Origin: Octopus vulgaris
Taxonomy: Eukaryota
Direction: 5' to 3'
Assembly (NCBI GenBank): GCA_951406725.2
Contig: OX597815.1
Location: forward strand, 160,642,001 to 160,706,000
Length of the DNA stretch: 64,000 bases
The translations under genes were made by a program, and so were the position numbers. The notes beneath the pieces are model-generated. The model was not told the DNA's origin. It saw only the letters and a list, made by a program, of their open reading frames with translations, and searched no databases. Position 1 is the stretch's first letter. Every line of letters starts with the position of its first letter. Positions 18,742-19,617 of this stretch are shown piece by piece.

Positions 18742-19617
18742 TAATTAATCAATATAGGGTGGCAAAAAATTTTGTAGAATTTTTTTGCCACCAGCGGCCT
18801 AGTGGGAAAAAATTAAATAATCAAAGACCATTTTTAAGTTCAACATCACAATCAAGGAACGGCCATAATAGGCCATTCACCCACTAGAAATAACAGCCAA
18901 AGCTTCAACCGCAAAATAACATTAATTCCGTAAACCAGGAGAAAATTAAAAAAACATTTACCCTGTAATTTCTTATACGATGCACCGTTTCATCTACTGT
19001 TTAATGGTAAACTAACCTGATTAAATTAAATCAAGCCAATCTTCCATAGGCCCTTAGATTCGGTTGAAGCTTTGGCTGTTATTTCTAGTGGGTGAATGGC
19101 CTATTATGGCCGTTCCTTGATTGTGATGTTGAACTTAAAAATGGTCTTTGACTATTTAATTTTTTCCCACTAGGCCGCTGGTGGCAAAAAAATTCTACAA
19201 AATTTTTTGCCACCCTATATTGATTAATTATGAATTTTCTGGTTAATTCCGTAATGGAATCGGCGGCTTATATTTATTTGCTGCCGATAAATTTGGCGCG
19301 AGTGCGATGATTTGAAAATTTTAGGTCAGATATTGCCGAGGCAGGGACAGAAATGCCTCGTGAAAATATCTGTTCCGATCTGGCTATTTCTTACTGACGA
19401 ATCTAAGGGCCTATGGAAGATTGGCTTGATTTAATTTAATCAGGTTAGTTTACCATTAAACAGTAGATGAAACGGTGCATCGTATAAGAAATTACAGGGT
19501 AAATGTTTTTTTAATTTTCTCCTGGTTTACGGAATTAATGTTATTTTGCGGTTGAAGCTTTGGCTGTTATTTCTAGTGGGTGAATGGCCTATTATGGCCG
19601 TTCCTTGATTGTGATGT
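18742..19617 (+). mobile_element. Retrozyme-like / PLE pseudo-LTR unit: 488-nt circularly permuted repeat preceded by an inverted partial copy, embedded in (TA)n
   Basis: 19061-19130 repeated at 19549-19617; 18742-19061 is the reverse complement of 19399-19617 continued by 19130-19230. Confidence 0.75.
19386..19492 (+). ncRNA. Type I hammerhead ribozyme with long stem II
   Basis: Stem I ATTTCTTA/TAAGAAAT; core CTGACGA 19394-19400; stem II ATCTA...TAGAT; GAAA 19469-19472; stem III ACGGT-GC-ATCGT; GUA cleavage triplet 19482-19484. Confidence 0.85.

Follow-up and report, generated by a model that had tools for sequence, protein, structure and literature searches.

The closest described relatives of the repeat analysed here are the metazoan non-LTR retrozymes, for which Penelope-like elements (PLEs) have been proposed as the mobiliser and of which a mollusc (mussel) family has been described (PMC7229834; Li et al., preprint 10.64898/2026.07.22.740005). 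In their available text, both of these sources pose as questions which enzyme mobilises the animal retrozymes and whether their circles are transposition intermediates. Hammerhead ribozymes also occur in PLE pLTRs, where they have a short palindromic helix III and act as dimers (PMC4209133); among the Xenopus retrozyme dimers reported in the available part of the Li et al. preprint, 8 of 9 did not cleave. The insertions of PLEs have a described signature, namely an inverted truncated copy together with a tail at one end (PMC3846280, PMC8557442). For the anole PLE it has been reported that both strands of AT-rich DNA are cut and extended, that two internal start sites of reverse transcription (RT) bound the tail, and that in vitro, for the one PLE tested, uncut RNA is the main substrate (PMC11167929).

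The locus and its repeat unit

The window, i.e. the whole 64-kb stretch of Octopus vulgaris DNA that was analysed, contains a two-armed insertion with the following features (monomer positions are counted from the predicted ribozyme cut, +1 being 19485).

18688..18740: (TA)n target tract, left side
18741..19062, minus strand: inverted arm, monomer 402-488 plus 1-235, with a 3' end in site 2 (18741)
19061..19062: junction of the 5'-truncated ends of both arms, with a 2-nt CG overlap
19061..19617, plus strand: forward arm, 1.14 units (65-488 plus 1-133), with a 3' end in site 1 (19615-19617)
19061..19548, plus strand: one 488-nt repeat period, non-coding
19117..19129, plus strand: site 1 repeated internally, ending in 131-133; RT is predicted to start here first
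19130..19231, plus strand: 'tail' between the end sites (segment A); site 2 is 19228-19231
19180..19214, plus strand: hairpin within the tail, kept in all three subfamilies, with little covariation
19386..19492, plus strand: type I hammerhead, predicted cut 19484/19485
19618..20302: (TA)n target tract, right side

The 488-nt period of the original prediction (19061 vs 19549) was borne out by a direct repeat of 69 nt (19061-19129 and 19549-19617), the two copies of which are 100% identical and spaced by 488 nt. The adjacent inverted arm (18741-19062), which had been read as C-B-A, differs from the reverse complement of C-B-A by one mismatch in 322 nt; it crosses the cut site once and is without the start of the hammerhead core. 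A motif scan of the window finds only one complete hammerhead at the locus, the single intact copy that had been claimed. As also foreseen, the insertion lies within (TA)n, which adjoins both of its outer ends (18741 and 19617). The unit has a GC content of 36.5%, runs on into itself with no LTR-internal-LTR layout, and is non-coding, its longest stop-free frames measuring 47 aa on the plus strand and 60 aa on the minus strand, in agreement with the claim that the monomer has no credible ORF; an RT or GIY-YIG ORF is absent from it.

All six self-complementary pairs named in the prediction were found in their places. When the monomer was folded as a circle, as had been suggested, it reached -142.9 kcal/mol (z -5.4; none of 60 dinucleotide-shuffled sequences was as low) in a structure that is branched and not rod-like. 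The fold does not name the strand, because the minus strand scores z -5.4 too. Two-sided changes were seen in only 1 of 54 pairs of the tail; its predicted structure is conserved, though this covariation does not prove it.

Beside the left TA tract of the retrozyme lies the 5'-truncated 3' end of a different PLE (18306-18690, minus strand), 94% identical to the 3' UTR behind the PLE ORF of another locus (L275), where this UTR likewise adjoins a retrozyme copy. Elsewhere, the window holds a broken PLE reading frame (30165-31273, minus strand, about 28-41% identical to the sampled PLE families), long frames resembling LTR retrotransposon gag/pol (40491-44124, minus strand, judged by eye), a fragment like a LINE 3' end (20879-21560, plus strand) and an abundant SINE-like repeat in several copies (16940-18280), the last two named by eye.

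A hammerhead with a long stem II

Stem I of the hammerhead (19386-93/19485-92) has 8 bp, the core CTGACGA...GAAA occupies 19394-19400 and 19469-72, stem II (19401-05/19464-68) carries a 68-nt hairpin insert, and stem III (19473-82) is palindromic. Of 144 units, 142 have an intact core, while the free position 7 is variable. Across 18 sequences from the three subfamilies (see below), two-sided changes affect 7 of 31 hammerhead pairs, located in stems I, II and III, these counts coming from related sequences and not being probabilities. In the alignment, a bulge in the oldest subfamily lowers the pairing of stem II to 74%, and the stem III palindrome has been retained in all three subfamilies. 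By these comparisons the hammerhead fold is conserved by covariation, and self-cleaving activity is predicted. Rfam did not detect the hammerhead in the window at gathering score, returning chance matches only at E up to 10, probably owing to the 68-nt insert in stem II.

In the folded circle, stem I forms with a probability of 0.2-0.3 and stem III with 0.02; as a duplex, stem III reaches -14.1 kcal/mol. By analogy with the pLTR ribozymes, the palindromic stem III predicts that the hammerheads act as a dimer. Two or more consecutive complete hammerheads, by which Li et al. define active retrozymes, are present in the family, e.g. in a locus of 7 units (L037).

A dispersed family in the octopus genome

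A genome search with the monomer, proposed at the outset as a way to find permuted or tandem copies, recovered a dispersed family on many contigs, with 1445 candidates, of which the 40 that were scored gave 236 matches, and with tandem arrays reaching 10 units among these 40 loci. Genome-wide, there are 716 copies of the exact ribozyme 3' strand pattern, and the exact pattern of a site-1 end in (TA)n occurs 433 times; the site-2 pattern, which also picks up related subfamilies, gave 451 forward and 843 reverse matches (a count that includes doubles). The identity of other loci to the window copy goes up to 99-100%, in keeping with the near-identical copies and the recent insertion that had been proposed.

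Overall we distinguish three subfamilies, with about 77-100% identity and retroelement ends. One is a related subfamily with a 492-nt period (L120-L144; 92-94% identity, 220 pattern matches) and another is older (L145-L169; about 77% identity, 51 pattern matches), both having the same layout and the same two end sites as the 488-nt family. Contigs of four sequencing runs, guessed to be RNA and with no DNA-versus-RNA control, cover the unit in 29-30 of 30 bins; since contigs reveal neither strand nor ends nor circles, this carries no weight for expression.

Two end sites, one per arm

The 3' ends of the arms fall at +131..133 (site 1) or at +230..239 (site 2), 104 nt apart. In the best-match set, 29 of 30 two-armed loci combine one site 1 end with one site 2 end. 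Among the first 100 site-1 matches (98 loci; L291 was left out of the pairing, and one edge array and one stray fragment were dropped), the same combination accounts for 78 of 83 pairs, the others being one site 1-site 1 pair and four pairs of site 1 with another end; these two sets have five two-armed loci in common. Two-armed loci chosen by site 2 and counted by eye comprised 19 site 1-site 2 pairs, no site 2-site 2 pair and two others. The related-subfamily loci include one site 1-site 1 exception (L157). By comparison with described elements, this presence of one end site of each kind matches the 'tail' signature of Penelope.

Some insertions have multimers in both arms, which keep register and have fixed ends. 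With homopolymers and indels masked, divergence is 0.71% within an arm, 0.62% between the arms of a locus and 1.62% between loci. The arms share variants and therefore both come from one template lineage; we infer twin priming on one RNA. The 5' ends of the two arms coincide within 15 nt in 27 of 83 pairs, which was not counted as evidence because many of these ends lie in palindromes and the alignments overlap. Target-site duplications are unreadable within (TA)n.

The nature of the template

The cut site is crossed at least once by 67 of 100 site-1 arms, and the array junctions at this point are exact in 152 of 160 crossings; most templates were therefore circles or uncut multimers. Thus far the original prediction, which had called for a circle or multimer as template, holds, while the RNA circle that it went on to propose was only deduced there, and uncut multimers also fit. 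At one of the 160 crossings, in the minus arm of L054, the junction omits 468-488 and resumes at the cut site, which might mean that the polymerase jumped templates on reaching the end of a cut RNA.

The 5' stops of the arms distinguish between first and later passes over the template. Stops at +1..+30 were found in 28 of 137 first passes vs 5 of 83 later passes (Fisher p 0.002), in a comparison where the +1..+30 interval was chosen after a pile-up had been seen in site-2-selected loci and where the two arms of one locus are not independent. For the 78 loci that had played no part in forming the idea, the corresponding figures are 22 of 104 and 3 of 43 (p 0.028); within this held-out set, the site-2 arms alone give p 0.048 and the site-1 arms alone 12 of 64 vs 2 of 22 (p 0.24), which is not significant. 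None of 109 arm stops falls in the 8 nt before the cut, and no other of 17 intervals exceeds 9.5%. First-pass stops are mostly located at +10 to +30, +1 itself being the stop of just two arms. The 40 best-match loci, a set with a bias towards long arms, have 4 of 68 5' ends within 10 nt of the cut vs 2.8 expected, i.e. no excess; the excess appears only with first passes counted in the end-selected set. Such an excess of insertion ends just after the predicted cut is an indirect sign bearing on self-cleavage. Given that a block caused by structure, or multimers that are partly cut, should have an effect in every pass, an excess restricted to the first pass fits cut linear monomers together with endless templates, the pass test not separating circles from wholly uncut multimers.

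It is quite possible, if short of probable, that the long arms were copied from uncut linear multimer transcripts of the source arrays, and that circles arise as a by-product or not at all. There are 10 of 51 loci with a variant repeated in just a part of the units, and the best-match set contains 20 variants of this kind vs 0.9 expected. Because one monomer circle cannot yield them, they need multimer templates or later conversion. The offset of one unit between the arms of L048 and the preference of the anole PLE for uncut RNA (PMC11167929) point in the same direction. On the other hand, partly cut multimers should produce stops in every pass, and the later passes have no excess. Furthermore, arrays can only become shorter by 5' truncation alone, whereas arms of 7-10 units exist. 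Private variants are fixed across all units in 9 of 51 loci, and such variants, when fixed in all units and in both arms, favour a monomer bottleneck. Weighing these patterns, we lean towards a ligated circle as the most likely non-run-off template, and otherwise an uncut multimer.

The stops at +1..+30 could also mark a transcription start or a joining hotspot in the T-tract at +21..+28, with the hammerhead maybe inactive in vivo. Many of them do lie inside this tract, at +23 to +25, but a hotspot of sequence or structure would act in every pass, and the excess ends sharply at +1, where two arms start and just before which there are none. Together with the conservation and covariation of the hammerhead, this makes a hotspot an unlikely source of the excess, and we prefer to explain it by run-off from a cut linear monomer.

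Relationship to autonomous Penelope-like elements

Intact elements with RT and GIY-YIG, ending in (TA)n and with two end sites of their own, are abundant in the genome. In 50 GIY-YIG loci sampled from 6136 candidates, no sequence common to the unit and an autonomous PLE was found as part of the repeat itself, the one match to the unit being a separate short insertion. PLE pieces near other retrozyme loci, considered as linked parts, are separate insertions as well. No PLE protein match was found within 400 nt upstream of 60 free 5' ends (193 loci).

One young autonomous family (L100-L112, e.g. L103:2268-5971) has many intact RT+GIY-YIG frames of 781 aa, an upstream frame of 479 aa, (TA)n ends and a tail of about 40 nt; it was rejected as the partner, as it shares no sequence with the unit. 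The 3' ends of this PLE family (L074-L112) display, about 60 nt before the first end site, a hammerhead-like motif with TTGATAA...GAAA instead of CTGANGA, a paired stem II and a palindromic CATG. This motif would be a U3/A8 variant.

Since their layout is that of PLE ends, the copies might be seen as truncated pLTR stumps of an ORF-bearing PLE, with arrays grown by unequal crossover. The PLE families sampled are few, and one copy of the older subfamily directly adjoins the 3' UTR belonging to a PLE ORF. At this locus (L170:2538-5480, the same as L154) one arm of an inverted PLE insertion continues, from the proximal end site of the PLE and through a 6-nt microhomology, into 612 nt of retrozyme; a template switch and a nested insertion would each account for the chimera. 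The junction is unique, however, being present in 1 of 40 scored copies of that PLE, the other 39 of which stop matching there, and the inspected copies end in their own 43-nt tail or in (TA)n. Other features that stumps would not explain are the continuation of the unit into itself past site 2, the free 5' ends with no PLE protein upstream, and the multimeric arms in register with fixed ends, so that we hold this origin to be very improbable. With the exception of the chimera, ORF-linked copies are absent among 193 family loci, which supports the claim that the element is non-autonomous, and the copies are not all pLTRs of an ORF-bearing PLE. These observations argue that the unit is not simply a pLTR stump; its putative mobiliser would be a trans-acting PLE.

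The description 'viroid-like' is not supported, an autonomously replicating viroid-like circular RNA captured into DNA being extremely improbable in spite of the small size, strong fold, hammerhead and circular permutation, in view of the hundreds of DNA copies in three subfamilies with retroelement ends, the hammerhead in one polarity only and the branched fold.

A model for retrozyme insertion

We consider it likely that the two arms at this locus are the insertion of an ORF-less, abundant hammerhead repeat of 488 nt, a non-LTR retrozyme, copied into (TA)n in trans by a Penelope-type RT/endonuclease; the arrays, the covarying ribozyme and the two-site tail support the original prediction of a non-autonomous retrozyme mobilised by Penelope. 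According to this model, retrozyme arrays would be transcribed and pairs of hammerheads, acting as dimers, would cut the array RNA. The endonuclease would nick both strands of the TA tract, both nicked strands would prime on one shared RNA, one strand using site 1 and the other site 2, and the two cDNA ends would be joined by microhomology. In about 15% of passes the template would be a self-cut linear monomer, at whose end copying runs off, and the remaining passes would copy a template without such an end.

More tentatively, we propose that a Penelope dimer primes both TA-tract strands at two sites on a self-cut monomer or circle and that the whole cycle is recorded in the genome. If true, short arms would derive from the linear monomer, and rolling arms of up to 10 laps, which have no end signal, from the circle. 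The genome would then provide evidence for germline cutting by an animal hammerhead and for circular RNA as a template in target-primed reverse transcription.

Comparison with known systems

A literature search, with coverage mostly outside subscription papers and Repbase/Dfam, returned no account of a cephalopod retrozyme, of this octopus family or of retrozyme insertion ends. The unit resembles the metazoan non-LTR retrozymes in being an ORF-less, low-GC tandem repeat (PMC7229834; Li et al.), with one type I hammerhead per unit and monomers to multimers (PMC7229834). Its 488 nt compare with 170-400 nt for retrozymes, and are inside the 51-972 bp of Li et al. It differs from the retrozymes of the available descriptions by the 68-nt insert in stem II and by occurring as dispersed two-armed (TA)n insertions with fixed end sites. 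RNA circles have been shown for described retrozymes (PMC7229834; Li et al.), whereas a circle of the octopus unit is predicted from its DNA copies.

With the EN+ PLEs the family has in common partial tandems, an adjacent inverted 5'-truncated copy and a tail at one end (PMC3846280, PMC8557442), as well as AT-rich or (TA)n targets (PMC3846280, PMC8557442, PMC11167929); unlike them, the octopus unit is without an RT/GIY-YIG ORF. The tail measures 104 nt, compared to 30-40 nt in PLEs (PMC3846280, PMC8557442), and, while it is called optional in the available descriptions of PLEs, 78 of 83 octopus-family pairs have it on one arm and not on the other. A hammerhead upstream of two start sites and priming of both strands are also features of the anole Poseidon (PMC11167929). 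The accessible part of that study reports no reads ending at the ribozyme cut, whereas the octopus insertion ends pile up after it.

As in the PLE pLTR hammerheads (PMC4209133), helix III is short and palindromic and a second copy is predicted to be necessary, but stem I is longer in octopus (8 bp), the stem II arm is very long, and the closing pair of stem II is A-U in most copies instead of the usual G-C (PMC4209133). Chlamys MRC1 elements are comparable in being non-coding PLE passengers with multicopy head-to-tail insertions (PMC8557442). Elements of the MRC1 type have a 3' sequence common to the autonomous family and, according to the available text, no canonical hammerhead (PMC8557442); for the octopus unit, an autonomous partner with common sequence was not found among the 50 GIY-YIG loci.

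Judged by its sequence, the window copy is a recent member of the metazoan non-LTR retrozymes that appears to work like a non-autonomous PLE. The retrozyme class has already been described; what is added here is the first-pass-only stop signal and the evidence from insertion ends. The origin of the Penelope tail and inverted repeat has so far been only partly explained, and this young family, with its fixed start sites, strict one-of-each rule and first-pass-only stops, offers concrete predictions for an existing in vitro PLE assay.
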